Source of the DNA: Candidatus Methylomirabilis limnetica
GTDB taxonomy: Bacteria > Methylomirabilota > Methylomirabilia > Methylomirabilales > Methylomirabilaceae
Length of the DNA stretch: 14,070 bases
Assembly: GCF_003044035.1 (NCBI RefSeq)
Contig: NZ_NVQC01000006.1
Span: forward strand, 1-14,070
Direction: 5' to 3'
Shown: one piece after another, positions 1 through 13,561 of the stretch
Numbering within the stretch: the stretch's first letter is position 1
How the letters are laid out: each line of letters begins with the position of its first letter
Notes under the pieces: model-generated
The model's input: only the letters and a program-made list of their open reading frames with translations
What the model was told of the DNA's origin: nothing
Database searches by the model: none
Made by a program: the position numbers and the translations under genes

Positions 1-541
1 AGGCTCGGGTGTGGCCATCGAAGAACATCTCCTGTCGCTCGTACGGATAGGCCCGCACAAAGGGCATGCCCGAATAGCGCGATCGCATACAGAAGAGCTT
101 GACCTGCCGCTCCTCTCCTGCCATGCGGACCCAGGCAGCTCCCCAGTCGACTTCCGCCTCCTGCGCGAGCTCCGGGTCTAAGGGGATGACCGCTGTGACT
201 GTCGGCCATCCCAGCCGAGCCTTCTGCTCCCGCACCCATCGTCTAACTGTCGACTCCGCACCCGGAAAGGCATACTCTTCGACCAGTCGGGTCCAGATCC
301 GGTGCGCCGTGTGGCGATGCTTCTTGGGGGTCTCCTGATCCGTGCGGAGCCAGCCCTCGATGATGGCGGCGACCGAGTCCATCACCCGGGAGGCCGGTTC
401 GTGCCTCCTCCGGTACTTAGGCTCCCAGCCAGCTAGAACCTTGCGGATCGTTTTGCGTGTATGCCCAGTCTCCCGCGCGATCTGACGAATACTCTTCTGA
501 TACACCCGAGCGGCCGTCCTGATGAGCTCGTACTGATCCAT
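1..541 (-). CDS. istA: IS21-family transposase IstA, N-terminal ~180 codons; the gene continues past the left window edge
   Basis: It is absent from the ORF track because it is open at the edge. My reverse-complement translation from ATG (541-539) reads MDQYELIRTAARVYQKSIRQIARETGHTRKTIRKVLAGWEPKYRRRHEPASRVMDSVAAIIEGWLRTDQETPKKHRHTAHRIWTRLVEEYAFPGAESTVRRWVREQKARLGWPTVTAVIPLDPELAQEAEVDWGAAWVRMAGEERQVKLFCMRSRYSGMPFVRAYPYERQEMFFDGHTRA. From memory this matches the N-terminal HTH region and the start of the catalytic region of IS21 IstA proteins (ESTVRRWVR, EAEVDWG, QEMFFDGH). Confidence 0.8.
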   Translation of the reverse strand, partial: MDQYELIRTAARVYQKSIRQIARETGHTRKTIRKVLAGWEPKYRRRHEPASRVMDSVAAIIEGWLRTDQETPKKHRHTAHRIWTRLVEEYAFPGAESTVRRWVREQKARLGWPTVTAVIPLDPELAQEAEVDWGAAWVRMAGEERQVKLFCMRSRYSGMPFVRAYPYERQEMFFDGHTRA

Positions 542-615
542 CCCTAGCACTCCTCTCCCTCCCTGTCTCTGGTGTGGTCTTGCTCGAACACACGAGAAAC
601 AGCGAGCGTATCAGA

Positions 616-662
616 GTGGGCTCCTTTTGCTCGATCATTGCCGTGTTAGGTGGGTCCCTTTT
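616..662 (-). repeat. Two direct copies of a 13-nt motif upstream of istA; candidate IS21 terminal multi-repeat (transposase binding sites). The exact IS end is not mapped.
   Basis: GTGGGCTCCTTTT lies at 616-628 and GTGGGTCCCTTTT at 650-662 (11/13 identical, 34-nt register). Both sit between the istA start (541) and the hsdR stop (686). IS21-family ends are known to carry repeated subterminal motifs. Confidence 0.35.
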
Positions 663-685
663 ACTCTAGCGAAATCAATTGTTTG

Positions 686-3013
686 TCAAGCGGCTGCTTG
701 TTGCTGATACAGGTACTTCTGGAAGCCTGTGAAGACACTCCCAATCTCATCCGGCCTGCCCAGATCGGCCACGGCGTCGGCGATGGAGTTGTGATGCTTG
801 AGCCGCAAGAGGGGAGTGAGCTTGTCCTGATCAAGTTCTTCCACCCCGACGCTGACGTAGTGTGACAGCACAAAATCGAGAAACACCTGCTGCTTGCTGT
901 TGAAATGCGTGCTGATAACGACCTTGGCCCTTACGGCCCGTTCTTCGCGGGTGAGCGGGGGCAGGGCATAGGCCACATGCGCCAGCACGTCGAACAGGTC
1001 GCTCTTCTGCGCGTCGATGATCTTCTGCATCTCAGCCAGTTGCTCACCGCCAAAGCCCTTCTCGGCGAGACCCTGCAAGAGCTTCTTCCGCGTCTCCGGC
1101 GCGCTCCAGAGGGCGCGTAGTTCAGCCTCGTTCTTGAAGAACTCCGGCAGCCTCCCGAACAGCAGTTCCATGAACTGCTGCGCGGACATGGGCGTGCCGT
1201 CAGGGTGCCAGAAAGTCGTGCACGTCATGTGCTGGATGGTGCGCGCCCTGCCATCGGCGAGCTTCACCTTGATCTTCGGGCGTCTGCTGCTGTCCAGCGC
1301 TGGGTCGCGTACCAGCAAAGGCGGATCCGGTGGAGATGCCTCATACCTTTGCTCCTTCGCCTCCGGTTCGATTGGTTCGCCGTCCCATTCCGGATCGCTG
1401 AAGTGATGATGCGCCTTCACGAAGTCGTAGATCGTGAAGGAGTCCTTGCCGTCGTAGAGCCGCGTGCCGCGTCCGATGATCTGCTTGAACTCGATCATCG
1501 AGTTGATCGGTCGCATCAAGACGATGTTGCGGATGTTGCGAGCGTCCACACCGGTGGACAGTTTCTGTGAGGTCGTCAGGATCGTGGGGATCGTCTTCTC
1601 GTTGTCCTGAAAGTCGCGCAGGTGCTGCTCGCCGAGATCACCGTCGTTGGCCGTGACCCGCTGGCAGTAGTTCGGGTCTTTGCTCGTCTTCACCTGATTG
1701 ACGAGGTCGCGGACGGCCAGCGCGTGATCCTGCGTGGCGCAGAACACCAGTGCCTTCTCCTTCTGGTTGATCTGGTCCATGAAGACCTTCACGCGGTGGG
1801 CTTCGCGTTCCTTGATCTCGATGATCTTATTGAAGTCGGTCTCTGTGTAACGCTTCCCGGTTTCGACCTCGCCCTCGATCAGCGTGTCGTCGGGCGTATA
1901 GACATACTCGTCGAGCGTCGTGGAGATCTGCTTCACCTTGAACGGCGTGAGGAACCCGTCGTTGATGCCTTCCTTGAGCGAGTAGATGTAGACCGGCTCG
2001 CCGAAATAGGCGTAGGTGTCTACGTTGTCCTTGCGCTTGGGCGTGGCGGTGAGGCCGAGCTGCACCGCCGGGGCGAAGTATTCGAGGATGCCGCGCCAGT
2101 TACTCTCGTCGTTCGCGCCGCCGCGATGGCACTCGTCGATGACGATAAAGTCGAAGAAGTCCGGCGGGTATTCGCCGAAGTAGGGCGACGGGTGGTCGTC
2201 TTTCGGCGGGCCGCTCATGAAGGTCTGGAAGATGGTGAAGAACAGGCTGCCGTTCTTCGGTACCTTGCCCTTCTTGCGGATGTCCTCCGGCGCGATCCGC
2301 ACCATCGCATCCTCTGGGAAGGCGGAAAAGGCGTTATAGGCTTGGTTGGCGAGGATGTTGCGGTCGGCAAGGAAGAGGATGCGTGGGCGGCGCGAGGGCT
2401 CGCGGCTCAGGTTCCAGCGGCTGTGGAACAGCTTCCACGCGACCTGAAACGCGATGAAGGTCTTGCCTGTGCCGGTGGCGAGGGTGAGCAGGATGCGCTG
2501 CCGATCCTCTGCGATGGCCTCCATCGTCCGCTCGACAGCGATGTCCTGGTAATAGCGGCTGGGGTGCGAGCCGCCTTTGTCCTCGAACGGCACAGCGGCG
2601 AAGCGGTCGCGCCACGTATTCGCTGCGGCGAACGTCGCCGCCCAGAGCTCGTCCGGCGTGGGGTAGTGCGGCAGCTCGCCTTCTTTGCCGGTCTGCATGT
2701 CGATGCCGTAGATGCCCTGTCCGTTGGTGGAATAGGTGAAGCGGATAGCCATCCTGCCGGCATAGCTCTTCGCCTGACCCACGCCCTCGGTCAGCTCTTC
2801 GTCCCACGCTTTAGCTTCGACCACGGCCAGCTTGTGGTTGCGGTAGACCAGCACGTAGTCGGCGATCTCCGGCTTGCCGCGCCGCCCGTGGCCTTCGAGA
2901 CGGCCTTGCGTGATGCGGTACTCGCGCAGGATCTTGCTGCCCTCGGCGACACCCCAGCCCGCCGCTTTCAGCGCGGGATCAATGTGCTCGGCGCGGGTCT
3001 CGGCTTCGTTCAT
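686..3013 (-). CDS. hsdR: Type I restriction enzyme R subunit (HsdR), with an EcoEI/EcoAI-like C-terminal domain
   Basis: The ORF is 775 aa. It has an N-terminal PD-(D/E)xK-like nuclease motif (ADYVLV...VVEAKAW), Walker A (LATGTGKTF), a DEAH-type box (VIDECHRG) and helicase motif VI (IIGRGTRL). The C-terminal segment (TFWHPDGTPMSAQQFMELLFG...DLFDVLAHVAY) resembles the EcoEI R C-terminal domain. Its ATG overlaps the upstream gene's stop (ATGA at 3010-3013). Confidence 0.95.
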   Translation of the reverse strand: MNEAETRAEHIDPALKAAGWGVAEGSKILREYRITQGRLEGHGRRGKPEIADYVLVYRNHKLAVVEAKAWDEELTEGVGQAKSYAGRMAIRFTYSTNGQGIYGIDMQTGKEGELPHYPTPDELWAATFAAANTWRDRFAAVPFEDKGGSHPSRYYQDIAVERTMEAIAEDRQRILLTLATGTGKTFIAFQVAWKLFHSRWNLSREPSRRPRILFLADRNILANQAYNAFSAFPEDAMVRIAPEDIRKKGKVPKNGSLFFTIFQTFMSGPPKDDHPSPYFGEYPPDFFDFIVIDECHRGGANDESNWRGILEYFAPAVQLGLTATPKRKDNVDTYAYFGEPVYIYSLKEGINDGFLTPFKVKQISTTLDEYVYTPDDTLIEGEVETGKRYTETDFNKIIEIKEREAHRVKVFMDQINQKEKALVFCATQDHALAVRDLVNQVKTSKDPNYCQRVTANDGDLGEQHLRDFQDNEKTIPTILTTSQKLSTGVDARNIRNIVLMRPINSMIEFKQIIGRGTRLYDGKDSFTIYDFVKAHHHFSDPEWDGEPIEPEAKEQRYEASPPDPPLLVRDPALDSSRRPKIKVKLADGRARTIQHMTCTTFWHPDGTPMSAQQFMELLFGRLPEFFKNEAELRALWSAPETRKKLLQGLAEKGFGGEQLAEMQKIIDAQKSDLFDVLAHVAYALPPLTREERAVRAKVVISTHFNSKQQVFLDFVLSHYVSVGVEELDQDKLTPLLRLKHHNSIADAVADLGRPDEIGSVFTGFQKYLYQQQAAA

Positions 3014-4077
3014 GGTTTCGGGCGCCTGGTTGTTTTCGGCTTCGACAGCTTCTTCACCTCGTCCTCGAGTTGCTTGAGGGTGTCGGCCTCCGACTCGTCT
3101 TCGAGTTGGGCACGCCGCCTGGCAGCGAAGCGGTCATACTCCTGCTCCGCGATGGCGTCTGCCTGTTCGCGACTGACCTTGCCGGCGTCGGGCAGGATGG
3201 CGCGCTCGTTCAACCGCAGGAAATCCTCGAGCCGACTCTGCCAGTTGTGCAGGAAGATCTGCTTGCGCCGCCTGGCCTGATCCTCGGCGAAATCGAGGAA
3301 CATGACGACGATGCGGTTCAGCTCGTTGATCTCGGCCTCGCGCAGGTAGTTCTTGGCCACGGTCACATCGCCCTTGCGGACCACGCCGCTCTTCCACGCT
3401 GTCAGCCCCATGTTGGGCTGGGCGGAGTCGGCCCGTTCGGCGATCAGTTCAGGCGCGGTCTTGCCGGTGGCGGCGAAGTGCAGCTTGTTCTGCACCGTCT
3501 GGAAGAAAACCTGCGTCTCCGGCTCGGAGGGCGAATAGTCGGCGGCCAGCGCGAGGATCTCCCGCACGCGCAGATACACCCGGCGCTCGCTGGAGCGAAT
3601 GTCGCGGATGCGCTCCAGCAACTCGTCGAAGTAATCCGTATGTCCCTTGCCCGGCGGATTCTTGAGCCGCTCGTCGTCCATAGTGAATCCCTTGACGAGA
3701 TACTCGTTCAAGCGCGCCGTCGCCCATTGGCGGAACTGGGTGCCGCGGGGGCTGCGCACGCGGTAGCCGACGGCGAGAATGGCGGGCAGGCTGTAGTGTT
3801 CGACCTCGCGAACGACTTCGCGGGTGCCCTCCAAACGAACTATCCGGAATTTCCGGATAGTTGCCTCTCGGCTCAATTCGCCCTCCTCAAAGATGTTCAC
3901 CAAATGCTCATTGATCGTCCGCACATCTTTCTGGAAGAGCTCCGCCAGAAGCGCCTGTGTCAGCCAGATGGTATCATTCTCGAATCGGCACTGGATGCGC
4001 GTCTGCCCGTCCTCCGTCTGGTAGAGGATGATGCTGGATTGCGGCGCCTCGTTGTCGGGCATGCGATTAATGGACAA
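3010..4077 (-). CDS. RhuM-family protein (virulence protein RhuM-like), embedded in the RM operon
   Basis: The ORF is 355 aa. The N-terminus (IILYQTEDGQTRIQCRFENDTIWLTQALLAELFQKDVRTINEHLVNIFEEGEL, then YSLPAILAVGYRVRSPRGTQFRQWAT) is typical of the RhuM family as I recall it. The track start at 4077 is TTG and lies inside a repeat, so the ATG at 4062 (MPDNEAP...) is the more likely native start. I found no Fic HxFx(D/E)GNGRxxR motif. Confidence 0.85.
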   Translation of the reverse strand: MSINRMPDNEAPQSSIILYQTEDGQTRIQCRFENDTIWLTQALLAELFQKDVRTINEHLVNIFEEGELSREATIRKFRIVRLEGTREVVREVEHYSLPAILAVGYRVRSPRGTQFRQWATARLNEYLVKGFTMDDERLKNPPGKGHTDYFDELLERIRDIRSSERRVYLRVREILALAADYSPSEPETQVFFQTVQNKLHFAATGKTAPELIAERADSAQPNMGLTAWKSGVVRKGDVTVAKNYLREAEINELNRIVVMFLDFAEDQARRRKQIFLHNWQSRLEDFLRLNERAILPDAGKVSREQADAIAEQEYDRFAARRRAQLEDESEADTLKQLEDEVKKLSKPKTTRRPKP

Positions 4078-4096
4078 TTGAGAGTGGATAATTGAC
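4066..4096. repeat. Left arm of the inverted repeat bracketing the four-helix-bundle ORF (TGGACAATTG / TGGATAATTGA motifs)
   Basis: The sequence ATTAATGGACAATTGAGAGTGGATAATTGAC at 4066-4096 is matched by the reverse complement of 4461-4491: an 11-nt perfect TGGATAATTGA plus an 8-nt ATGGACAA. Confidence 0.8.
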
Positions 4097-4101
4097 AGCG
4101 T

Positions 4102-4458
4102 TCATTGGCTCATCTCGCGCTTGCTTGAATTGATAATGCTGGTCAGAAGCTTTAGGAGTTCAACCACATTGTGATGAATGGATGAGAACGCAGCGGGCTC
4201 CAAATATTGTGTCTCGTGCAATAACTCCAGCCAGTATTCGGTCTCGTTGGTTTCCTTCAGAGCGATGGCCATCTTATGGACAAAGTCGGCCTTGCTCTCT
4301 GCCTGTTCAGCTTCTCGAACCAGTGCGCCAATGGCCGTCCCCGAGCGCAACAATTGCTTGGACAGAACAAATTCTTTTTTCTCAGTACACAAATGTTTGT
4401 ACAGAATTACAATCCGCACTGCGAAAGCAAATGACTTCTCCTTGACGACATTCCCCAT
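4102..4458 (-). CDS. Four-helix-bundle protein (23S rRNA intervening-sequence protein family, Avd-like)
   Basis: About 118 aa from ATG 4458; the track's 4464 start is TTG. The sequence KSFAFAVRIVILYKHL...LSKQLLRSGTAIGALVREAEQAESKADFVHKMAIALKETNETEYWLELL is the characteristic pattern of this family. GC content is visibly lower than in the neighbouring genes. Confidence 0.85.
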   Translation of the reverse strand: MGNVVKEKSFAFAVRIVILYKHLCTEKKEFVLSKQLLRSGTAIGALVREAEQAESKADFVHKMAIALKETNETEYWLELLHETQYLEPAAFSSIHHNVVELLKLLTSIINSSKREMSQ

Positions 4459-4460
4459 CG

Positions 4461-4491
4461 TCAATTATCCATTGTCCATTGTTAATTGTCC
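4461..4491. repeat. Right arm of the inverted repeat bracketing the four-helix-bundle ORF; it overlaps the last 9 codons and the stop of hsdS
   Basis: TCAATTATCCATTGTCCATTGTTAATTGTCC carries three copies of the GGAYAAT motif on the minus strand. It encodes TGQLTMDNG-stop of HsdS. Confidence 0.8.
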
Positions 4492-5667
4492 CGTAAAGGC
4501 TTGGTGCAGCAGCGATTTCTTCAACGCCTCTAACGCGGCGAGCTTCTGCTGGTAGATGGATTCGAGGCGTTGGGTTGCTTCGTGGAGGTCGTCGAGTTTG
4601 GTGACAATTTCTTTTTGCTCAGCGACAGGCGGAAATGGAAACCGTTCGTTCTCGAACGTGCCCATGTTGATGTTTGCTTGGGCGCTTCCTTTTCCCATCG
4701 CTTGGAGGCGCGCCTTGAATGACTGAAGGAGGTACTCGATGAAACCGACATCAGCCTCTTTGGGGTTCGCCAGCACGCCAATGACGCTGTCTGGAAAGCA
4801 AGCGTCGAAGCCCAAAATTGCCGTCTCCGCGATGTTCGCCGCGATTGTTATACAAATTGTTCCATTCGGCCACAGCTTGCTCTGGGCAAGTCCGGCTTCG
4901 CTGTAAGTCTGTGAATACTCGGTGATGATGTGGTCTGCATTGCGAATATCGCCGGTTTGGACGAATGGATATTTCCCACCGTAAAGATGTGGTGCATTTC
5001 GTGGTCGGTGCTTTGACTTACCCCGACCAAAGGTTGTTGCTATCTCTTCCAATGTCTTTTGTTTCCACCCTTTGCCGCGCTGGGTGAAGACGGATTGGAG
5101 GTGGCTTTCGAAGAGGACGCGGGCGTTTTGGAGGTTCTTTTCGGCGTTGGCTTTGGCGGTGGCGAGGCCCTCAAACGCTTCGTCGAGGATGCCGACGATC
5201 CGCTGCTGTTCGGGGAGCGGGGGGACGGGAATTACCTGCGCTTTCACATCTCCATCAGTAACTGCTGGATAGCTTGCCCCCTTCTGGAGGCTTTCCATCT
5301 GTGCGATGAAGTCCTCAGTAAAAAGGGAGTAGAACACGAACCGGTGGTCAATTCCATGCTTCGCTCGGAGAACGAAATAGCCGGTGCTACAAACTTGCTT
5401 GTCGAGATGCTCCGGCACGACAGCGATTCGCTGCAATGTTGGCCGCACCGTCGCAAAGAGCACGTCGTTCTCTCTCACGAGCTTCCTAGCCCGGCTTGGC
5501 GCGTTCTTTCCTTTGAGGCGTTGCGTTGCCTTAATCTGAAACGTTGCGTTGGAGACGCTTGAAACATCGATGTAGTCGAACTCCGTTTCTGGCGATTGGA
5601 GCGGATTAACCGTCTCGGTCTTTTGCAGAACTTCGCCGAGCGTTTTGGTTGGCCACTCCTTCTTCAT
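4465..5667 (-). CDS. hsdS: Type I restriction-modification specificity subunit (HsdS)
   Basis: The ORF is 400 aa, with two variable target-recognition halves. Each half is followed by a conserved helical spacer (PPLPEQQRIVGILDEAFEGL...NARVLFESHLQSVF and PPVAEQKEIVTKLDDLHEATQRLESIYQQKLAALEALKKSLLHQAF). Its ATG overlaps the stop of the upstream MNT gene (5664-5667). Confidence 0.93.
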   Translation of the reverse strand: MKKEWPTKTLGEVLQKTETVNPLQSPETEFDYIDVSSVSNATFQIKATQRLKGKNAPSRARKLVRENDVLFATVRPTLQRIAVVPEHLDKQVCSTGYFVLRAKHGIDHRFVFYSLFTEDFIAQMESLQKGASYPAVTDGDVKAQVIPVPPLPEQQRIVGILDEAFEGLATAKANAEKNLQNARVLFESHLQSVFTQRGKGWKQKTLEEIATTFGRGKSKHRPRNAPHLYGGKYPFVQTGDIRNADHIITEYSQTYSEAGLAQSKLWPNGTICITIAANIAETAILGFDACFPDSVIGVLANPKEADVGFIEYLLQSFKARLQAMGKGSAQANINMGTFENERFPFPPVAEQKEIVTKLDDLHEATQRLESIYQQKLAALEALKKSLLHQAFTGQLTMDNG

Positions 5668-5984
5668 AGCAGCGCCTTGCTTGGCTGCTCATAAAACAGC
5701 ACGCCCACGCGCTCGATATGCTCCCGTAGTTTTGCGTGATTCAGTTCATTGAAAACCGAGAGATCAATGGTGTAGGGCAACAGCAGATCATCCAGCGCCG
5801 ATGCTATCGTCGAGCGCAAATCAGACGTGAGCGCCTCGCCACAGAGCATCAAATCAATGTCCGAGCCCGTCTTGAAGTTTCCCTTGGCGCGAGATCCATA
5901 CAAAATCGCCTTTTCAATCTCCGGGAAACGCGCAAAGACGGCACAGATGTTTTCGACCGTTGTTTCAGTTAACCCATATTTCAT
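5664..5984 (-). CDS. Minimal nucleotidyltransferase (MNT) domain protein, partner of the adjacent HEPN protein
   Basis: The ORF is 106 aa with the nucleotidyltransferase signature LYGSRAKGNFKTGSDIDLML (GS...SDxD). It overlaps the HEPN gene by 4 nt (5981-5984). Confidence 0.9.
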   Translation of the reverse strand: MKYGLTETTVENICAVFARFPEIEKAILYGSRAKGNFKTGSDIDLMLCGEALTSDLRSTIASALDDLLLPYTIDLSVFNELNHAKLREHIERVGVLFYEQPSKALL

Positions 5985-6406
5985 GAGTTCTTGTCTTCCT
6001 GATCATGTAGTGCAGTGAATTTCTTCGCCATACTCTGAAAGGCCGGATAAAACCGTTCCAGGATATCATCCGCAACCGCCTGAGCGATCTTGAGGTCGTA
6101 GGTATGCGAGGTCAGATTGCGAACTTCTATCATTTTCATCCAGTCCTCGCCTTGCACGATAAGACCATTCTTGAACGCTTCACGCGTCGCGTCTTTTGAG
6201 CCAATCAAGCCGACGATCCCTTTATCCTCTAAATAATCTTTCAATACATTCCATGCCAGCTCATGGGTGAACTCAAAACTTTGAATCAATCCCTGTTGCT
6301 CAAGCTTGGATAATTCGCGCGAGCGTGCCAATTCCACCGCCTCAACGAGCGTCTGAAATGCCTTGAGGTAGTTGTTGAACCGCTGTTTCCACCGAATGTC
6401 ATCCAT
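5981..6406 (-). CDS. HEPN-domain protein (HI0074-like nucleotidyltransferase substrate-binding subunit)
   Basis: The ORF is 141 aa. The N-terminus (RWKQRFNNYLKAFQTLVEAVE) and the Rx4H motif (RNLTSH) are typical of the HI0074 family. It starts 14 nt after the hsdM stop. Confidence 0.9.
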   Translation of the reverse strand: MDDIRWKQRFNNYLKAFQTLVEAVELARSRELSKLEQQGLIQSFEFTHELAWNVLKDYLEDKGIVGLIGSKDATREAFKNGLIVQGEDWMKMIEVRNLTSHTYDLKIAQAVADDILERFYPAFQSMAKKFTALHDQEDKNS

Positions 6407-6420
6407 AGCCTGATCCTCCT

Positions 6421-7884
6421 TTACAGCATCTCCTTGATCTTTCTCAGCACCTCGGCGCTCTCCGCATCGAGCGCAGCGATCTCGTCCATGATCTCCTGCG
6501 GGCTGCGGTGCGCGATTTCCTCGCCGCCGTTGGGGTTCTTCACAGAGAGGTCGAAGGTCGCCTTGTCGATGCCCTTGGCGTCCACGCTCCAGCTCTTGGG
6601 CGAGTCGGCGAAGGTCTCTTGCAGCTTCACGAAGTCGGCGAGGTCGGCGTCGTTGAGCGGGTTGGTCTTACCGAGGTTGCGGCCGGGGTCGAGCTGGTAG
6701 AACCAGACCTTGCGCGTGGGCGCGCCTTTCTCGAAGAACAGCACGACGGTCTTCACGCCCGCGCCCTGGAACGTGCCGCCGGGGCAGTCGAGCACGGTGT
6801 GCAGGTTACAGCTTTCCAGCAGGAGCTCGCGCAGGCTCACGGAGGCGTTGTCGGTATTGGAGAGAAACGTGTTCTTGATGACCACGCCGCCGCGCCCGCC
6901 GGCCTTGAGCATCTTGATGAAGTGCTGGAGGAACAGGAACGCCGTCTCGCCGGTGCGGATGGGGAAGTTCTGCTGGACCTCCTTGCGCTCCTTGCCGCCG
7001 AAGGGCGGATTGGCCAGCACCACGTCGAAGCGATCCTTGTCCTGAATGTCGGCGAGGTTCTCGGACAGCGTGTTGGTGTGGACGATGTTCGGCGCCTCGA
7101 TGCCGTGCAGGATCATGTTCATGATAGCGATGACGTAGGCGAGGGACTTCTTCTCTTTACCGTAGAAGGTGCGGTCCTGAAGGATGCGGTCCTGTGCGGT
7201 GGTGCGCTTGGGGTGGGTCTCTTTCAGGTACTCGTACGCCTCGCACAAAAAGCCCGCCGAGCCGACCGCGCCGTCGTAGATACGGTCGTCGATCTTGGGG
7301 TGCACGACCTGGACGATGGCGCGGATGAGCGGGCGCGGGGTGTAGTACTCGCCGCCGTTGCGCCCGGCGTTGCCCATGTTCTTGATCTTGGCCTCGTAGA
7401 GGTGCGACAGCTCATGCTTCTCGGTCTGCGAGCGGAAGCGCAGTTCGTCGATGTGGTCGATGATCTCGCGCAGGTTGTAGCCGCTCTGGATCTTGTTCTT
7501 GATCTCTCCGAAGATCTCCCCGATCTTGTATTCGATCGTGTTTGACCCGGTGGCCTTCTGCTTGAAGCCGTGCAGGTAGGGAAAGAGCTTCTGATTGACG
7601 AAGTCGCGGAGGTCGTCGCCGGTTAGGACCCTGTTGTGGTCGAGCTTGCCGTCCTTACCCTTGGGCGCGGCCCAGCTTTCCCAGCGGTACGGTTTGTCGA
7701 GGATGTAGCTGTACTTCTTCCTCTCCAGCGCGGCTTCATCGGCGCGGTCCTGCTCTAGTCCATCGAGGTATTTCAGGAACAGCAGCCAGGACGTCTGCTC
7801 GGTGTAGTCGAGCTCGGTCGTGCATCCCGCCTCTTTCCAGAGGACGTCGTCGATGTTCTTGAAGGCTTGTTCAAACACAGGCAC
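6421..7884 (-). CDS. hsdM: Type I restriction-modification N6-adenine DNA methyltransferase subunit (HsdM)
   Basis: The ORF is 487 aa with the SAM-binding motif DGAVGSAGFL and the catalytic motif LANPPFGGKE. The N-terminal HsdM_N-like region reads FKNIDDVLWKEAGC...EQTSWLLFLKYLD. The listed start is GTG at 7884. A second GTG at 7878 has better spacing to a GAGGA Shine-Dalgarno sequence. Confidence 0.95.
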   Translation of the reverse strand: MPVFEQAFKNIDDVLWKEAGCTTELDYTEQTSWLLFLKYLDGLEQDRADEAALERKKYSYILDKPYRWESWAAPKGKDGKLDHNRVLTGDDLRDFVNQKLFPYLHGFKQKATGSNTIEYKIGEIFGEIKNKIQSGYNLREIIDHIDELRFRSQTEKHELSHLYEAKIKNMGNAGRNGGEYYTPRPLIRAIVQVVHPKIDDRIYDGAVGSAGFLCEAYEYLKETHPKRTTAQDRILQDRTFYGKEKKSLAYVIAIMNMILHGIEAPNIVHTNTLSENLADIQDKDRFDVVLANPPFGGKERKEVQQNFPIRTGETAFLFLQHFIKMLKAGGRGGVVIKNTFLSNTDNASVSLRELLLESCNLHTVLDCPGGTFQGAGVKTVVLFFEKGAPTRKVWFYQLDPGRNLGKTNPLNDADLADFVKLQETFADSPKSWSVDAKGIDKATFDLSVKNPNGGEEIAHRSPQEIMDEIAALDAESAEVLRKIKEML

Positions 7885-7933
7885 CCATCCTCTACGCGGT
7901 CAGTGTCGCGTTGTGGTCATGTCTCGTGCGGGC

Positions 7934-8011
7934 TAACGCGGGGCTGAGCCGCCGCAAAACGGTCGGTTTCGTGCCCATGGTTCTCCCGGAGCGGAGCGGA
8001 GGGAGAACGCC
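7934..8011. repeat. Repeat family copy 1 (71-nt core plus a 7-nt tail), 46 nt upstream of the hsdM start
   Basis: The sequence is TAACGCGGGGCTGAGCCGCCGCAAAACGGTCGGTTTCGTGCCCATGGTTCTCCCGGAGCGGAGCGGAGGGAGAACGCC. Positions 7934-8004 match 8608-8678 with 3 mismatches, and the tail GAACGCC matches 8726-8732. It contains the small hairpin GTTCTCCC-N13-GGGAGAAC. Confidence 0.85.
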
Positions 8012-8068
8012 TGAACTCACAGGTGCGGCGGTTATTTTGCCGCATCCTGTAGAGTGATTGGTTATGTG

Positions 8069-8272
8069 TTATTTTGTTATTGTTTCTACTATGGAAATGT
8101 CTTTTTTTATCCATTCATTTACTATCGTTGCAACCTCAACACCTTTTTTCTTTGAGAATTTTCTTAGCACTTCCATCATGTCCGGCTCGATATAAATAGG
8201 TAGATACAATTCTGCATCTGGACGATAAAACTTACCTCTCTCACCTTTGGAAAAATCGTATTCTTTTTTCAT
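8069..8272 (-). CDS. Antitoxin in the BrnA position (small CopG/RHH-like protein), partner of BrnT
   Basis: The ORF is 67 aa. The N-terminal MKKEYDFSKGERGKFY is typical of antitoxins encoded downstream of DUF497/BrnT toxins. A GGAGG Shine-Dalgarno sequence lies 8 nt upstream, and the ATG overlaps the brnT stop (ATGA, 8269-8272). Confidence 0.72.
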   Translation of the reverse strand: MKKEYDFSKGERGKFYRPDAELYLPIYIEPDMMEVLRKFSKKKGVEVATIVNEWIKKDISIVETITK

Positions 8273-8568
8273 TTATTTTCCTCCTGATACTGTTTTGATT
8301 CTTTTCTGGTTGCCTTGCGGGCTGAAATAATTCTAATTCTGCAACAGTCGGCATCCAACTGCTGGAAAGTATGTACTACAACCAACAAGATACCATTCCC
8401 GTCAATTCCGATTGTAGCCCATCGGTCTTCGTGTTCGCTATGCTCACTATCAAAAACGGCGATCATTCTTAGATCAAGAAAAATAGTGGATGCTTGCTCA
8501 AAACCAATCCTATGTTTTTTTCGATTTACTTTTGCCTTATTGGGATCCCAGTCAAAATAATAACGCAC
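8269..8568 (-). CDS. brnT: BrnT-family (DUF497) ribonuclease toxin
   Basis: The ORF is 99 aa. It carries FDWDPNKAKVNRKKHRIGFEQASTIF and RIISARKATRKE, the hallmark BrnT motifs. The start is GTG, preceded by GGGAG 6 nt upstream. The gene is AT-rich relative to the window. Confidence 0.88.
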   Translation of the reverse strand: MRYYFDWDPNKAKVNRKKHRIGFEQASTIFLDLRMIAVFDSEHSEHEDRWATIGIDGNGILLVVVHTFQQLDADCCRIRIISARKATRKESKQYQEENK

Positions 8569-8607
8569 TTGTTGCTCCCATTTATATTTCCTTTCTTATT
8601 TTACGTA

Positions 8608-8732
8608 TAACGCGGGGCTGAGCCGCCGCGAAGCGGTCGGTTTCGTGCCCCTGGTTCTCCCGGAGCGGAGCGGAGGGAAGGGGCACCGGCTCAGCCCCGC
8701 GTTCTCCATGAGCGAAGCGAAGGGAGAACGCC
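8608..8732. repeat. Repeat family copy 2 (full-length form) containing a 95-nt imperfect palindrome (8609-8703)
   Basis: The outer arms AACGCGGGGCTGAGCCG (8609-8625) and CGGCTCAGCCCCGCGTT (8687-8703) are perfectly complementary over 17 nt. The inner arms are GTGCCCCT (8645-8652) and AGGGGCAC (8679-8686). There is a mini-hairpin CCGC-GAA-GCGG at 8626-8636, followed by the hairpin CGTTCTCC-N15-GGAGAACG (8700-8730). Confidence 0.85.
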
Positions 8733-8849
8733 GCGCGGATGAGCGGCGGAAGCGGAGTCGAGCTTGCTCGGCGGAGCTGCAGTCCGCTCGATCCGCTGGT
8801 TGACCGTAGCGAAGTGGAGGTCAGCCAGCGGATTCTTGATCCGCGCGGC

Positions 8850-8879
8850 GTTGCCGCTCCGCCGCAGCGGAGCGGCAAC
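8850..8879. other. Perfect 13-bp stem, 4-nt loop hairpin in non-coding GC-rich DNA
   Basis: The hairpin is GTTGCCGCTCCGC-CGCA-GCGGAGCGGCAAC. Neither strand has a downstream T-run, so I am not calling it an intrinsic terminator. Confidence 0.7.
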
Positions 8880-9218
8880 CAGTTATTAGATGGACGGATA
8901 AGTACAGCACAGATTCTTATACACGGTCAAGGTGAAATAAGAACTTGATGTAAACTATAAAGTTCCATTACAAACAGCAATGGCTAATAGGCAATTCACG
9001 GAATATCAAACGTGAAACGCCTACTATGCGGTCCGCGGATTAGTCACTGTTGATTCGCTGCCATATGCTCAGTATTTCGCCAGATATTTTAAAACAATTT
9101 GGCACCGACCTGGAAAAAGGGGCGGCTCCTTTCTCTCTCCGCGCCGAGAAGTTTCGGAGTGCTCCGATGCGTGTGTGCCGGCCAGCCGCTGCAACGAATG
9201 GTTCGGCTGCCTCCACCA

Positions 9219-9507
9219 TCACGTCTCGCTCTCTACCAGGACCAGGTCCCGGTGCGGCATGACAGCCGCGAAAAGCTCCGAGAGTTTCTGGATGGTCGGG
9301 ACTTGATCGGCCCTGCTGATAACGGGCGTAGGCGTTGATGGAAGTGGCGCCAAGACGCTCCGCGACCTGGGCCAGGCTCAAACCGGCGCGCTGTCTGGCG
9401 CGGCGAAGAAGAAAGGCGGTGAGCGTGGGTTGATCCTCTGAAGTGACTTCAAAGTGCTCCCCGGTTCCGGGAAACACCTCGAGCCTGAATCCCGGCCGAT
9501 TGACCAA
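9219..9507 (-). pseudogene. XRE-type HTH antitoxin-like gene, frameshifted near 9300-9306 and lacking an ATG or Shine-Dalgarno sequence
   Basis: The track ORF 9040-9507 begins at TTG directly after an in-frame TAG. It reads GFRLEVFPGTGEHFEVTSEDQPTLTAFLLRRARQRAGLSLAQVAERLGATSINAYARYQQGRS and then becomes P/G/R-rich nonsense. Shifting one frame at about 9305 gives QVPTIQKLSELFAAVMPHRDLVLVESET-stop (stop at 9219-9221), which is the expected end of an HTH_XRE domain. Confidence 0.6.
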
Positions 9508-9727
9508 GGAAATGAACTACCCCGCAGCAAGCTGCAGGGTATCGTCTTCTGTTCTGGCCCGTCATTCCGTGCTTGACACGCCTGCCCCGTACTTGATACG
9601 GGGCCTGCCCCGTACTGGATACGGGGGAATCCGGTCGGGCCCTCTGGATACCGGCGCCTGCCCCGGACCACGATCCGGGGTCCACCGGTATGACGAGCTC
9701 GCGGCAAGCCGCAGGGAATGAACCCCC
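9508..9727. repeat. MITE/REP-like composite structured repeat
   Basis: The element is bounded by GGAAATGAACTACCCC (9508-9523) and GGGAATGAACCCCC (9714-9727). It has GCAGCAAGCTGC-type hairpins at 9519-9538 and about 9695-9713. Three CCTG-prefixed 7-bp hairpins lie at 9585-9603, 9608-9626 and 9661-9680, the last nested inside ATACCGG/CCGGTAT (9648-9654 / 9685-9691). The ORFs across it translate to the low-complexity peptides typical of such repeats. Confidence 0.7.
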
Positions 9728-9795
9728 AGTGGATTCAGGACGTGCGTAGAAATCATGGTCGTGCGGACATCTTTATGCCCCAATCATTCCTGCCG
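9715..9795 (-). pseudogene. Remnant of the extreme C-terminus of an integron-integrase-like tyrosine recombinase
   Basis: The minus strand reads RQE-stop-LGHKDVRTTMISTHVLNPLGVHS. This resembles the conserved ...QELLGHKDV(K/R)TTMIYTHVLN.GG.GV.SP C-terminal block of IntI-type recombinases, which contains the catalytic Tyr; here that Tyr position is Ser. An in-frame TGA interrupts it, and no upstream catalytic domain is present. Confidence 0.5.
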
Positions 9796-9796
9796 G

Positions 9797-10141
9797 TCAC
9801 GGCGCATTCAGGCTTTTCCGTCCAGGCGGTTCACGCTTCTCTTGCTTTGTTACGCTTTTCTTGGCTCTACCTGAAGGTGCGTGCTTCAGCTTTTGGCGTG
9901 TCTGGCCTGGCAGCTTCATGTCCAGGAGCGGCAAAAGTAATTCTCGCCAGTTATCGACCGACCCCATGATACCGTTAATTTCAAGGCTGTCTTCGCCGTA
10001 ATACACCTGGAGCTGTTCGTTGCAGCAGCCGCATTTCAATAGAAACCGGGGGTCTCGCTTCCCCTGTTTAGTCCGATGAAATACTCGGATATCCCAATAA
10101 CCATCCGAGCGGGTTTGGGCAATCTTGCGATTCGTTCCCAT
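9797..10141 (-). CDS. Hypothetical small protein with a CGCC motif and a basic C-terminal tail
   Basis: About 114 aa from ATG 10141, which is preceded by GAGGAAA; the track start at 10153 is TTG. The sequence reads MGTNRKIAQTRSDGYWDIRVFHRTKQGKRDPRFLLKCGCCNEQLQVYYGEDSLEINGIMGSVDNWRELLLPLLD, then a K/R/P-rich tail. I cannot assign a family. Confidence 0.5.
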   Translation of the reverse strand: MGTNRKIAQTRSDGYWDIRVFHRTKQGKRDPRFLLKCGCCNEQLQVYYGEDSLEINGIMGSVDNWRELLLPLLDMKLPGQTRQKLKHAPSGRAKKSVTKQEKREPPGRKSLNAP

Positions 10142-10284
10142 CGATTTCCTCAAGATCTCAACCCCTTCTATCTTCCCCCGCTCACGCTTTCACACGGCAC
10201 CCCGTTGCCATCGCTGTCCAGGCCGCTTACGGCCTGTAGCGGAGGTATGGCTCATCGCTGGAATATCTGTTCCCGCCGGCGGTC

Positions 10285-10536
10285 TTACGCCGCCGTCAGT
10301 CGGATATCGAGAGAGCTCCCGAGGACTCGCGGGACCTTCAGCAGCGTCTCGATAGTGACATTGCCTGCATTGTGTTCGATCCGGCTGATCGCTGCCGCGA
10401 TCTGGGTCTGGCCAGCTTTTGTTACCGACGGAGCGCAGCGAAGCGGCGTCGGGCTCGATGTCCTCGGCCCCAGCGCCTCAAGGCCATGTCGCAAAGCCTG
10501 TCGTGAACATGTCGTAAACATTGTCACAAAGATCAA
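10285..10536 (-). CDS. Short HTH protein resembling the C-terminal two-thirds of HigA-like addiction-module antidote proteins; possibly 5'-truncated
   Basis: The sequence [43 protein letters not shown] fits the helix-turn-helix ...GN.....TLLKV..ALG..L end of that family. Candidate starts are TTG 10536 (overlapping the Fic stop) or ATG 10521, neither with a Shine-Dalgarno sequence. The family's usual N-terminal ~40 aa are absent. Confidence 0.4.
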
Positions 10537-11582
10537 CCCGGCTCCGCCAGGCGGTAGAGCAGGTGGTGCGTTTCACCTTCGGTGACCAGCAGTCCGACAT
10601 CGACCATGACTTTCAGATCCCGCTGCAGAGACCGACGGTTGACCTCGGGACACAGACGTTCGAAGCCCTGGATAGTCAGGCTGCCGTGCTCAAGAATGTG
10701 TCCAATGGCCTTGGCCTGGCGCTCCGAAAGATCATGCTCCTTGATGAGCACATCCCGTCGGATGGCCTGCTCTCCGCGCTCTCTCACCTCGGTGAGCTGG
10801 GTGGCCAACCCCTCTACGAAGTACTCCAGCCACCCGGTCATTTCCATGCCGCTCCCCCGGACGCTCTGGATCGCGTTATAGAAAGCGGCCCGATCACGGT
10901 CGTAGTACTCGCTGATTGTGAACAGCCGCTTGAAATCGTACCCGGCCCGATAGAGGCTCAATGTAGAGAGCAGCCTGGAGGTGCGGCCGTTGCCGTCCAG
11001 GAACGGGTGGACATGCACAAACTGGAACTGGGCGACGCCGCTCACCAGTACGGGATGAACCTCCTGTTCGCGATTGAGCCAGTCCACCAGCTCCGCCATC
11101 ATGATCGGCACGTCGTGAGCCGGAGGCGGCGTGTAGACCGTCGCACCGGTCACTGAGTTGACCACGTAGTTCTGGATTTTCCGGTACTCGCCAGGAGCCG
11201 CGGCCCCACCACGGACACCTTCGACGAGCCGCTTGTGGATTTCCCTAACCAGTCCCTCAGTGATCGGTCCACTGGTTTCCAGATATTCGGAGACGAAATC
11301 GAAGGCCTTCCGGTAGTTCAGCAGTTCCCGCACGTCGTCGGGGTCTGCCTCGAGGACCGGGTTCCCCTCTAGCAACCGCTTGGCCTGCTCCAGGGTCAGG
11401 CGCGTTCCCTCGATGTGTGTGGTATGGTGGGCTTCCAGGATCAAGGCGCGCCGACCCATCTCACGCACCCAGGCATCGGACAGGGTCGCGGCCTCCAGGA
11501 ACCCCCGGGCCCGCTCGATGCGGGTCAGCCCGGCGGTGATCCGGTTGGTGATCGTGAAAATGGGTTTGAAGCTCTTCGTCAT
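10533..11582 (-). CDS. Fic-family protein (AMPylase-type), class II with an N-terminal inhibitory helix and a C-terminal winged-helix region
   Basis: The ORF is 349 aa. The Fic active-site motif [12 protein letters not shown] is intact. The inhibitory motif (S/T)xxxE(G/N) is present as TTHIEG, upstream of the core. Confidence 0.9.
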
Positions 11583-11710
11583 GGAGTAGCGTTGCTTTCT
11601 TTAGATTTCCTGCGGCTACAGATGGAATGCCTAATGCCAGCGGTCACCAGCCGGTTCGCTGAGAAACCATAAGGAAGAGAGCCGGTCTGGTGCACCGCCT
11701 GGTTGGGCCG

Positions 11711-12046
11711 TTAATAAATACATGCATCAAGGATAGATAACACCTCGTCAAGCACAGCATCAGAAGCGGTGCCTATACGCCTGACCTTACGCGTACGATA
11801 ATCTATCGACTTGACCTGTTCAACCATGACGAAACCGGCCACATTCGGATCGTTGGGAATCACCACATGAAATGGGAACCCTCGATCTGTCTTCGTGACA
11901 GGACAGACGATAACGAGGCCGGTATGTTGGTTAAACAGCGTATTGCTGACAACTAAGGCCGGCCGTCTGCCCCTCTGCTCGTGGCCGGACTGCGGATCGA
12001 ACGTAACAGTAACGAAGTCGCCTTTTCTTGGTATGTAGTCGGCCAT
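11711..12046 (-). CDS. mazF: MazF/PemK-family endoribonuclease toxin
   Basis: The ORF is 111 aa. It reads YIPRKGDFVTVTFDPQSGHEQRGRRPALVVS...GLVIVCPVTK...VMVEQVKSIDYR, which is characteristic of the family. Its ATG directly follows the mazE stop (TAAATG). Confidence 0.9.
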   Translation of the reverse strand: MADYIPRKGDFVTVTFDPQSGHEQRGRRPALVVSNTLFNQHTGLVIVCPVTKTDRGFPFHVVIPNDPNVAGFVMVEQVKSIDYRTRKVRRIGTASDAVLDEVLSILDACIY

Positions 12047-12295
12047 TTACCACGATTCTCTGCCGACAGGTTGTCCCCAATCAATTTCTTCCGCTTCATA
12101 GTCGCTGGGGATGCGAGAGACCAGTTTCTGGAGGCTATGTTTTCCACGCACACGCCTCACAGGAGCAATGACGATGACACCATCTTTTGCGCGCACCTCA
12201 ACATCGTCACCAAGCGAGATGTGCGCTTCCTCAAGAACATGCTTGGCCAGGCGAAGTCCTTGGCTATTACCCCATTTTTGGATCTTGGTCACCAC
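12047..12295 (-). CDS. mazE: MazE-type antitoxin (AbrB/SpoVT swapped-hairpin fold)
   Basis: The ORF is 82 aa. It carries TKIQKWGNSQGLRLAKHVLEEAHISLGDDVEV. The start is GTG, with GGAGG 7 nt upstream. Confidence 0.88.
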   Translation of the reverse strand: MVTKIQKWGNSQGLRLAKHVLEEAHISLGDDVEVRAKDGVIVIAPVRRVRGKHSLQKLVSRIPSDYEAEEIDWGQPVGRESW

Positions 12296-12320
12296 AATCG
12301 GCCCTCCTGAGAATATACAT

Positions 12321-12350
12321 GGTATAGCCCTTGACTGAAATCATGTCAAG
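12321..12350 (-). promoter_or_regulatory. Putative sigma70-type promoter of mazEF with an overlapping operator-like palindrome
   Basis: On the minus strand the order is TTGACA (plus coordinates 12344-12349), a 17-nt spacer, then TATACC (12321-12326), about 25 nt upstream of the mazE start. The inverted repeat CTTGAC-N9-GTCAAG (12330-12350) overlaps the -35 element. Confidence 0.45.
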
Positions 12351-12364
12351 TATTGTTATGGTCC

Positions 12365-12397
12365 AATGCGGGGCTGAGCTGCCGCGAAGCGGTCACG
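12365..12397. repeat. Repeat family copy 3 (partial), between the Fic stop and the mazEF promoter
   Basis: AATGCGGGGCTGAGCTGCCGCGAAGCGGTCACG matches the first ~30 nt of copies 1 and 2 (GCGGGGCTGAGCCGCCGCGAAGCGGTC). Confidence 0.75.
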
Positions 12398-13561
12398 TCA
12401 CGATCTCTGTTTTCGCGGCGGCAGGAAGGCCAGAATGATCTCGCGGCGTGCCCGAACTCGAGTACCTCGCTTCTCGATGAGACCCCGATGGATCAATGAA
12501 TTGACGTCGCGGCTAATGGTCTTCGCTTGTTTCGTCGCGTAGGAGGCTGCCAGGCTCGGGCTGAGCTTTGGAATCTCTGCGGTAAGCCAATCGTCATGCT
12601 CCGAGAGATCCAGCACAAGATTCTTCTGTCGCAACTGCGACGCCGACGGTCGTTCCCCGAACTGCTCGTCGACATAGTTACACCATGCTTCGTTCCATTG
12701 CTGCACGCGGATCGCCTCGATCTGGCTGCGCAGCCCGTCGACAAAGCCGGTGGCCGCATATTGGAGGAAGGGAAACACATCACCGCCGGAACTACTCGCA
12801 AACTGTAGCTGCCGATAGTAGTCGGATCGAGTCTGGTTGTAGTGGTTACTCAACAGGTGGGCTGCCGGAGACGGCACTCCCGCACTGAGCAGGATGAAGA
12901 ACTCGACCATGCGCGCGGTCCGGCCGTTGCCATCGCCGAAGGGATGGATCCAAGCGAGATAGAGATGAGCCAGTACGGCGCGGAGTACAGCGAACGCGAT
13001 ACGCTCCTCTTTCGCCGGCCGAAAAACCGGCTCGTTGAGCCACGAGCACAGCTCCTTGAGCAGGAAGTCGCAGTCTTCATGTGGCGCACCTTTGTAGGGC
13101 CCAACCACCACTGAGTAGGGTCGAGTCACCCCTGGTACCACAGTGTCCGGAGGAATCTCGAGGTCCTTCAGTATTGACCGATTGAAGGAGCGGATCCGCT
13201 CAACGGTGAGCTCACCGTCGGACGTCTCGCGATCGCTCGTGATCTCGTTACAGACTTTGACGACATTCTCGATCTCTTGTCGGAGGTACTCCTTGGACTT
13301 CGGCAGGTGCAACTTGCCTTCGAGCAGTTGAAGCACTTCTGCCTCGGTGAGGGTATTGCCTTCGATAGCGGTGGTGGCAAGAACCCCTTTCGCAAGATAG
13401 ACCTGGTGCAGCTTCTGGCCGGTTGCCGGCTTGAGCGGGGTTCCCGCGATGTGCTCACACTTCGACTGGGCCTCGCCGAGACGCAACCAGAGCTCCTTGG
13501 ACGCCCGCCTGAGGTCGAGCTGGAATTTCAACCAGGGGTGTGTCCGTTCGTATGGCCGCAT
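12398..13561 (-). CDS. Fic-family protein, class II (second copy, divergent from the first)
   Basis: About 387 aa from ATG 13561; the track start at 13564 is TTG. The active-site motif HPFGDGNGRTAR is intact. The inhibitory motif is TTAIEGN. The C-terminal region looks winged-helix-like (ISRDVNSLIHRGLIEKRG). Confidence 0.9.
   Translation of the reverse strand: MRPYERTHPWLKFQLDLRRASKELWLRLGEAQSKCEHIAGTPLKPATGQKLHQVYLAKGVLATTAIEGNTLTEAEVLQLLEGKLHLPKSKEYLRQEIENVVKVCNEITSDRETSDGELTVERIRSFNRSILKDLEIPPDTVVPGVTRPYSVVVGPYKGAPHEDCDFLLKELCSWLNEPVFRPAKEERIAFAVLRAVLAHLYLAWIHPFGDGNGRTARMVEFFILLSAGVPSPAAHLLSNHYNQTRSDYYRQLQFASSSGGDVFPFLQYAATGFVDGLRSQIEAIRVQQWNEAWCNYVDEQFGERPSASQLRQKNLVLDLSEHDDWLTAEIPKLSPSLAASYATKQAKTISRDVNSLIHRGLIEKRGTRVRARREIILAFLPPRKQRS

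Follow-up and report, generated by a model that had tools for sequence, protein, structure and literature searches.

Gene content of the locus

We analyzed a stretch of 14,070 nucleotides (nt) from Candidatus Methylomirabilis limnetica (contig NZ_NVQC01000006.1, positions 1 to 14,070), which we refer to as the window. On its minus strand lies a type I restriction-modification (R-M) operon in which a small gene for a four-helix-bundle (4HB) protein is lodged between hsdS and rhuM, with arrays of seven-nucleotide repeats on both sides in inverted orientation. With moderate confidence, we interpret positions 4066 to 4490 as a passenger cassette of the kind known from those intervening sequences (IVSs) of 23S rRNA that carry an open reading frame (ORF), lodged here in an mRNA. 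The operon contains the following features, in order of transcription.

6421-7884, minus: hsdM, head of the co-directional gene string
5981-6406, minus: HEPN-type NTase_sub_bind gene (domain scan)
5664-5984, minus: nucleotidyltransferase (MNT) gene (domain scan)
4465-5667, minus: hsdS, 400 amino acids (aa), last five codons and stop derived from the cassette
4456-4490, minus: 5' arm in transcript sense, five heptamer units (sequence, period-7 array, inverted pair, motif enrichment)
4102-4458, minus: 4HB gene, 118 aa, PF05635/TIGR02436, BT_0352 (PDB 2RLD) subfamily
4069-4096, minus: 3' arm in transcript sense, reverse-complement heptamers, between the 4HB stop codon and the rhuM start
3010-4062, minus: rhuM, 350 aa when counted from its ATG at 4062, gene following the insertion point, N terminus aligned with that of a homologous operon (L090)
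686-3013, minus: hsdR, last gene of the cassette-bearing operon

The 4HB ORF runs on the minus strand from an ATG at 4458-4456 to a TGA at 4104-4102. The GC content of the cassette is 46 to 48%, compared with 64 to 65% in hsdR and hsdM, in agreement with an initial annotation of this DNA that had noted a drop in GC relative to the flanks. That annotation also proposed a TTG (4077) as an alternative rhuM start, which is unlikely, since gene callers and the homologous operons L090 and L096 use the ATG at 4062 (MPDNEAPQ...). The position of the cassette, between hsdS and rhuM, is not in an rRNA gene; a scan of 3800 to 4800 against Rfam by E-value gave no match, and conserved 23S motifs were found in none of 88 loci scanned.

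Inverted heptamer arrays and the predicted stem

A repeat finder run over positions 3900 to 4700 identified inverted arms at 4069-4096 and 4460-4487, 28 nt long and 82% complementary, with the left arm 5 nt and the right arm 1 nt away from the ORF. The proposal that the 4HB ORF (4102-4458) is bracketed by inverted arms was thus borne out, with the right arm reaching to 4490. Read in transcript sense, the 5' arm (4490-4456) consists of the units GACAATT, AACAATG, GACAATG, GATAATT, and GACGATG, the last of which contains the 4HB start codon, and the 3' arm reads GTCAATT, ATCCACT, CTCAATT, and GTCCATT. The heptamer unit is GAYAATK and its complement, with about five repeats per array. The arms had been described as inverted repeats able to pair with each other; the predicted long-range pairing stands, and what fell is the notion of simple inverted repeats, since the arms are degenerate tandem heptamers. 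Their motif GGAYAATTG occurs three times in the 14-kb window, always within the arms, against 0.13 occurrences expected, and 0 of 200 shuffled sequences reached three. Positions 4460 to 4490 form the only period-7 array across the window.

The 5' arm also encodes the end of HsdS (..QLTMDNG), followed by a TAA stop at 4467-4465; the hsdS reading frame does end in this arm, as the initial annotation held. The hsdS stop lies 6 nt from the 4HB ATG, with no Shine-Dalgarno sequence. In the minimum-free-energy fold of the minus-strand transcript, which had been suggested as a check, the two arms join around the whole ORF as 13 bp plus 9 bp with a 7-nt bulge, so that the terminal inverted repeats form an enclosing stem of at least 20 bp. 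The duplex of the two 63-nt flanks has a predicted energy of -39.9 kcal/mol (z = -5.9 versus shuffles).

Empty sites and a discrete insertion

A metagenome scan with RhuM yielded 80 loci, none of which carried this 4HB gene. Compared with the window, L090 shares 88% amino acid identity in HsdM, 77% in RhuM, and 81% in HsdR, and L096 is similar. In both, the 4HB gene is absent and the hsdS stop lies 9 to 12 nt ahead of the rhuM ATG. Alignment shows about 405 nt of extra sequence in the window, and because hsdS is directly followed by rhuM in L090 and L096, this block is a discrete insertion, located between the last ancestral hsdS codon and the rhuM start. HsdS ends in AFSGKL or AFHGDL at the empty sites and in AFTGQL-TMDNG in the window, which identifies the TMDNG tail as cassette derived. 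Both ideas, a discrete cassette at the hsdS/rhuM junction and an HsdS tail contributed by it, had been put forward beforehand and are upheld by these empty sites, where the homologous proteins end before the tail.

Contigs with a 97 to 100% identical 4HB gene represent the same operon, some of them without the HEPN-MNT pair. Eight contigs have exactly the same array sequences, relatives at 97% identity have almost the same ones, and identical 4HB proteins map to one locus type only. A different downstream gene in L006 to L008 was dismissed as a gene-calling artifact on short contigs, the DNA being identical. In L177 (2048-2115) and L178, the 5' array and the first 30 nt of the 4HB ORF are partly duplicated upstream of an intact gene, which suggests recombination or slippage between arrays.

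An alternative hypothesis, which we take seriously but consider doubtful, is that the unit is a mobile element acting at the DNA level. The arrays would then be its terminal inverted repeats, the 4HB protein a movement factor or the cofactor of an enzyme, be it the host's or a foreign one, and the ORF-less hairpins described below derivatives akin to miniature inverted-repeat transposable elements (MITEs). Presence or absence at an exact intergenic junction would be expected of such an element, the partial duplication in L177 and L178 is compatible with it, and terminal inverted repeats are present, albeit as tandem arrays rather than single repeats. An old idea of Ralph and McClelland, that the ORF of IVSs serves mobility, points in the same direction, as quoted in PMC4990558. 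However, the 4HB protein, the cassette's only ORF, has no nuclease or recombinase fold or motif, one copy only is seen per close lineage, and the window junctions show no visible target-site duplication, the empty sites compared with them being only 77 to 88% related.

Array-ORF-array geometry across homologous loci

The passenger cassette reading gains from the recurrence of the same layout elsewhere. We compared the window with 80 genome loci encoding 4HB proteins 62 to 85% identical to its own (L009 to L088), 81 loci in all, from Acidobacteriota, Nitrospirota, Planctomycetota, Verrucomicrobiota, Bacteroidota, Cyanobacteriota, Desulfobacterota, Spirochaetota, a candidate phyla radiation (CPR) bacterium, and others. 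Period-7 arrays covered 29.4% of the 80-nt flanks of the 4HB genes, compared with 0.58% of the remaining sequence, an enrichment of about 50-fold, while periods 5, 6, 8, and 9 were essentially zero in the same loci. In 343 kb of rhuM loci without the 4HB gene, period-7 coverage was 0.016%.

The unit consensus is G-[A/T]-[C/T]-A-A-T-[T/G], forward upstream of the gene and reverse-complemented downstream of it. At a looser threshold, arrays were found upstream in 71 and downstream in 67 of the 81 loci, with a median gap of 2 nt to the start codon and 1 nt to the stop codon. The modal length was five units on both sides (29/71 upstream and 29/67 downstream), and an independent register-based count gave five units in 30/81 and 28/81. 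The start codon occupies positions 5 to 7 of the last unit in about 33 of the 81 loci. Because arrays slip by whole units, alignment columns are not comparable, and a comparison of cognate with noncognate duplexes replaced a covariation test. Cognate arms paired better than arms taken from different loci (-28.8 versus -20.2 kcal/mol; permutation p < 1e-4). Runs of N start inside or beside arrays in two loci (L027, 3062-3227; L064, 3265-3292) and could reflect either masking or gaps that the arrays left in the assembly.

We give virtually no credence to the idea that the inverted repeat arose by chance or that it is an ordinary hairpin or terminator between genes with no relation to the ORF. 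Inverted repeats that are short and AT-rich do turn up often by chance, and the repeat finder returned 19 inverted pairs in 800 nt. Three copies of GGAYAATTG where 0.13 would be expected, the roughly 50-fold period-7 enrichment at the flanks across 81 loci, and the recurrence of arrays in distant subfamilies (see below) speak against coincidence, and no U-tract follows the arms.

A further alternative is that the arrays are promoter or operator DNA driving transcription that begins at the ATG or close to it, the 4HB protein being a repeat-binding repressor. Spacings from TTGACA to GATAAT in AT-rich arrays follow 3 + 7n, with 17 bp among them. A 9/12 match in the window (GGGACA-17-GATAAT, 4492-4464, minus strand) ends 5 nt before the 4HB ATG, and in L011, TTGACA-17-GATAAT is followed by AAGGAGG. 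Most start codons are without a Shine-Dalgarno sequence, and the start codon lies within the last unit. As a general explanation, the promoter hypothesis was rejected because the full motif occurs in the sense orientation in only 9 of 81 upstream arrays, compared with 5 antisense. No promoter or terminator signal in the window was significant, its promoter-like matches being not above shuffles (3 versus 1.7). Units such as GGGAATC, GTCGGAG, and TTCAAAA are unlike promoters, and the inverted downstream array would be left unexplained. We therefore regard this possibility as quite improbable.

Arrays in other subfamilies and on plasmids

The heptamer arrays are not restricted to close relatives of the window protein. 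XCC0516 (PDB 2GSC) belongs to a distant subfamily (E = 0.11 against the window profile). Its homologues in Xanthomonas and Dyella (L179 to L184, approximately 2420 to 2900) lie between accB and accC, fixed across Xanthomonadales, and not in rRNA. They are flanked by GC-rich GGGAATC/GGGAGTG arrays and their complements, and the predicted pairing is mismatched at every seventh position.

Ten annotated plasmid copies (L186 to L195; 40 to 60% identity) all have inverted period-7 repeats by eye. The strict array mask was passed by seven of the ten, the arrays of Monoglobus, Anabaena, and Chondrinema being more degenerate. The unit is GAAAGNG in Treponema, GTCGGAR in Nostoc punctiforme, AATCCCC/AATCGTA in Planktothrix, AGTGATT in Bernardetia, CCAGTGA in Euhalothece, TTCAAAA in Nostoc flagelliforme, and GTAATTC in Dolichospermum. 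What is invariant across subfamilies is the period, the inversion, and the adjacency to the gene; the unit sequence varies. The array-ORF-array geometry, with a period of 7 and some five units on each side, is found in almost every sampled cellular member of the family; it is missing from two copies in gut phages. The 4HB gene of Monoglobus pectinilyticus (L190) lies between hsdS and hsdR and is unannotated, and that of Anabaena cylindrica (L194), which separates cas2 from cas1, is on the opposite strand.

Neighboring genes and ORF-less hairpins

The 4HB gene is co-oriented with its upstream neighbor in 72 of 78 cases and with its downstream neighbor in 64 of 79. Upstream neighbors include HsdS (17/77), N6_N4 methyltransferase (8), and HsdM (4); downstream neighbors include HsdR (about 15/78), RhuM (6), and Schlafen/AlbA (6). 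Among the further neighbors are aconitase, PolA, AcrB, CysS, 5-enolpyruvylshikimate-3-phosphate (EPSP) synthase, RecF, and AccB/AccC. Many upstream proteins carry array-encoded tails like that of HsdS in the window, ending in ..ELTMDN, ..LTKDNGQ, or ..LKMEN.

Arrays of the same unit type also occur elsewhere in the 4HB loci, often as a forward array directly followed by a reverse one, i.e., as a hairpin. In five loci from different phyla, a heptamer hairpin occupies one and the same site in hsdR, between the codons for ..SRWN and RRPRILFLADR. The insert is 66 or 75 nt long and in frame in L010 (3496-3569), L012, L026, and L037, and it is 62 nt long and causes a frameshift in L009. The hsdR gene of the window has no insert at this site. 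In L045, a 33-nt palindrome that is not composed of heptamers is found at the same position.

Another alternative is phase variation, in which gain or loss of a 7-nt unit would shift reading frames and switch neighboring genes. The unit length of 7 is not divisible by three, the hairpin in hsdR is not the same in L009 as in L010, and the number of units varies among Coxiella strains, all of which would suit such a switch. The window arrays, however, consist of degenerate units placed in the 3' end of hsdS on one side and between genes on the other, where a change in unit number would alter only a short tail. Arrays are also stable in sequence, as the eight contigs and the relatives at 97% identity mentioned above show, and this explanation accounts for neither the tie to one protein family nor the inversion. 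We consider it highly improbable.

The 4HB protein might also be a host-recruited accessory of type I R-M systems, acting on hairpins at the junction or in hsdR to tune or delay HsdR/RhuM relative to HsdM/HsdS. The strong enrichment beside R-M genes (the HsdS and HsdR counts given above), the hairpins kept in frame in hsdR of four loci, the hsdS-4HB-hsdR order that also occurs on a Firmicute plasmid, and an hsdS-4HB-rhuM block common to Nitrospira, Acidobacteria, and the window lineage are arguments for this idea. It is nonetheless unlikely in our view. Many copies reside in housekeeping operons without R-M genes, the orthologous R-M operons L090 and L096 do without the 4HB gene, and the window hsdR has no internal hairpin. 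Defense islands, moreover, gather insertions of all kinds, and the window itself has HEPN-MNT, BrnT, MazF, and two Fic genes.

The same surroundings bear on the mobile element hypothesis. In its favor are the very diverse neighbors, housekeeping genes included (accB/accC, aconitase, polA, cysS, and recF), and the solo hairpins in other gaps of 4HB loci and in hsdR (five loci, four in frame). The strong co-orientation with host operons, in contrast, would be unexpected for a DNA transposon.

The four-helix-bundle protein

The window protein matched PF05635 with 92 bits and TIGR02436 with 102 bits, above the curated cutoff. Its AlphaFold2 model (pLDDT 96) has helices at residues 2-26, 31-51, 56-82, and 88-117, and Foldseek gave TM-scores of 0.91 to 2RLD, 0.80 to 2GSC, and 0.77 to Avd (4DWL or 8UB7). 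By sequence, it is 63% identical to BT_0352 (PDB 2RLD; E = 8e-40). The family is large, with 9,805 representatives of 50%-identity clusters at E <= 1e-3. The PDB entries 2RLD, 2GSC, and 4DWL contain five chains each, and Lin et al. (2006) is cited in PMC4990558 for a homopentameric barrel. Avd has been described as a pentameric barrel, all five protomers of which contact one RNA stem-loop.

Synonymous divergence (dS) was saturated in 352 of 400 pairs, and the ratio of nonsynonymous to synonymous divergence (dN/dS) was about 0.11 in the 48 pairs for which it could be computed, values that indicate strong purifying selection on the 4HB protein. The GC content of 4HB genes follows that of their hosts (r = 0.90); in 59 of the 81 loci it falls short of the host value by more than 5 points, and in none does it exceed it by that much. 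Saturated dS together with GC that tracks the host implies long residence and not recent jumps, which is a further point against the mobile element hypothesis.

Other features of the window

The rest of the window (7917-13564) contains the following genes, which, with the helix-turn-helix (HTH) gene among them, mark it as a defense and toxin-antitoxin island.

8269-8568: BrnT toxin
9040-9507: HTH gene
10533-11582: Fic gene
11711-12046: MazF/PemK
12398-13564: Fic gene

Within the R-M operon, the HEPN-MNT pair (5664-6406, minus strand) between hsdM and hsdS has a GC content of 46 to 50% and is missing from the otherwise orthologous loci L169 to L176 and L090. Its borders are without heptamer arrays. 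The pair is a second, independent insertion into the same operon.

Discussion

How the cassette might work

We postulate that the cassette in the window has no promoter of its own and would be cotranscribed with the operon that runs from hsdM to hsdR. The 5' array terminates the upstream frame and supplies the 4HB start codon, so that translation of the 4HB protein is probably coupled to that of hsdS. On a transcript free of ribosomes, the arrays would pair into a stem of about 22 bp enclosing the ORF. By analogy with the Coxiella IVS, in which the 5' RNase III cut falls at the first repeat (PMC4990558), RNase III would cut this stem. Alternatively or additionally, a pentameric 4HB protein may bind the stem, perhaps with one heptamer per protomer, as the contacts of Avd with its RNA might suggest. 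The net effect would be a self-insulated module able to reside in operons or in rRNA without destroying either. In the window, such a cassette could uncouple the expression of hsdM and hsdS from that of rhuM and hsdR.

Several observations weigh against this reading and temper our confidence in it. The fold of the whole 461-nt region is only weakly better than shuffles (z = -1.76), and the stem carries a 7-nt bulge. Since the 5' arm is translated within hsdS, passing ribosomes would frequently open the stem. With a pI of 7.0, compared with a family median of 9.0, the window protein is not basic, so electrostatics give no support. The authors of the Coxiella study found no evidence of S23p production in vivo (PMC4990558). 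The 80 genome loci are the closest relatives of the window protein and hence are not independent samples. Two gut-phage contigs (MT835815 and MT835590; L196 and L197) encode 4HB proteins with 39 to 42% identity and no arrays, and one of the two genes is followed by an ordinary terminator-like hairpin. The phage genes also indicate that the arrays are not a by-product of the 4HB gene itself. A viral origin was rejected, with one relative among 2.9 million viral contigs and these two GenBank gut-phage copies lacking arrays.

A further objection comes from the mismatches between cognate arms. Across the 81 loci, A:C mismatches on the sense strand outnumber G:U (110 versus 71; p = 0.005), the opposite of what selection for pairing in the sense RNA predicts. 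This bias speaks against a constraint on the sense RNA and counts in favor of the mobile element hypothesis. With the strand-specific pairing test failing, a role at the DNA level remains a serious rival, even if we find the passenger cassette the better description of the window.

A broader hypothesis and its implications

We further put forward, tentatively and with less than even confidence, that PF05635 pentamers are dedicated partners of heptamer arrays, the five or so units of an array corresponding to one per protomer. On this view, the arrays also occur without the ORF, as hairpins between genes and in frame within genes such as hsdR, and the classical ORF-bearing IVSs of 23S rRNA would be those members of the system that landed in rRNA. 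If this is true, PF05635 would represent a widespread, unrecognized protein-plus-repeat system, either REPtron-like or an RNA-processing module. It would provide a function for the S23p/IVS family and a candidate origin for the STRR, TAACTGA, and GGACCGG heptamers. A gene and its arrays forming one unit of fixed geometry would link the function of the IVS ORF, a question since 1993, with the origin of heptamer arrays.

There are also consequences for annotation. Arrays add tails to upstream proteins (HsdS in the window) and sit in frame in some hsdR genes. They coincide with runs of N in two loci, and the 4HB gene itself is sometimes unannotated, as in L190.

Comparison with known systems

The closest structural relatives of the window protein are of uneven help. 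BT_0352 (2RLD) belongs to the same subfamily and is a structural-genomics entry without an assigned function. XCC0516 (2GSC) also has inverted heptamer arrays but differs in belonging to a distant subfamily located between accB and accC; it too is without an assigned function. Avd, the accessory protein of diversity-generating retroelements, shares the four-helix-bundle fold (4DWL, 8UB7), and the kinship noted in the initial annotation is confirmed by the TM-score of 0.77 to 4DWL. Sequence identity to Avd is only 16%, and the window, as had been stated, encodes no reverse transcriptase, no RVT domain being detected in the 17 ORFs scanned. No pair resembling a template repeat and variable repeat (TR/VR) was found in the repeat search of 3900 to 4700 or in the period-7 scan of the window; no repeat search of the whole window was made. 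By analogy, the contacts between Avd and its RNA may serve as a precedent for repeated contacts of a pentamer with one structured RNA.

Repetitive extragenic palindromic (REP) elements can be associated with a RAYT gene, forming REPtrons, and some MITEs insert into genes in frame, e.g., the Rickettsia palindromic elements. As in these systems, a gene lies between inverted copies of a short repeat, and the repeat is also found elsewhere as palindromes without an ORF, in some cases in frame within genes. Unlike the REPtron protein, the window protein has no HUH/Y1 transposase domain or recognizable recombinase, and its repeats are tandem 7-mers rather than single palindromes.

Heptanucleotide repeats have been described repeatedly. 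TAACTGA arrays occur in Beggiatoaceae, cyanobacteria, and Bacteroidetes, for which "no mechanism is evident" (PMC4679880), and Geobacter metallireducens has 49 inter- and intragenic GGACCGG x4 elements (PMC2700814). Like cyanobacterial STRR and these TAACTGA and GGACCGG repeats, the 4HB arrays have a period of 7, are mostly intergenic, and lie near start codons. A patchy spread over the same phyla is common to both, and GATAACT-type units fall within the variation seen here. The published repeats differ in having been named without a protein partner (PMC4679880, PMC2700814). In the literature searched, outside of which most subscription journals lie, no paper ties PF05635, S23p, or "four helix bundle protein" to heptamer arrays in general, and the sole mention of heptamers for this family concerns the single IVS of Coxiella (PMC4990558).

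That IVS is the nearest match to the window cassette. In the 23S rRNA of Coxiella burnetii, it is 428 nt long and is closed by a 28-bp terminal stem interrupted by a single mismatch and a single bulge; it has an S23p ORF, RNase III cleavage, and a GC content below that of the host (PMC4990558). Two or three tandem GACAGAT units and one GACAGAA directly precede the S23p ATG, and the number of units differs among strains (PMC4990558). With these GACAGAT repeats before its ORF, the classical IVS has the same array-ORF design as the window, where the unit is GAYAATK. The initial annotation had compared the cassette with 23S IVSs, and size, stem, and ORF family all agree: IVSs of Coxiella and Leptospira are about 430 nt long with a PF05635/S23p ORF in the loop of a stem, and the window has a predicted 22-bp stem with a bulge. 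Sporadic presence and absence and a GC content below that of the host are likewise shared. There are also differences. IVSs lie in helix 45 or 25 of the rRNA, whereas the window cassette lies in a protein-coding operon, where translation of its 5' arm gives the upstream protein its tail. The S23p gene product of Coxiella seems to be decaying, whereas the window protein is under clear purifying selection. RNase III excision is documented for the Coxiella IVS and is a prediction for the window cassette. In the main, what sets the window cassette apart from the classical IVS is its residence in an mRNA.

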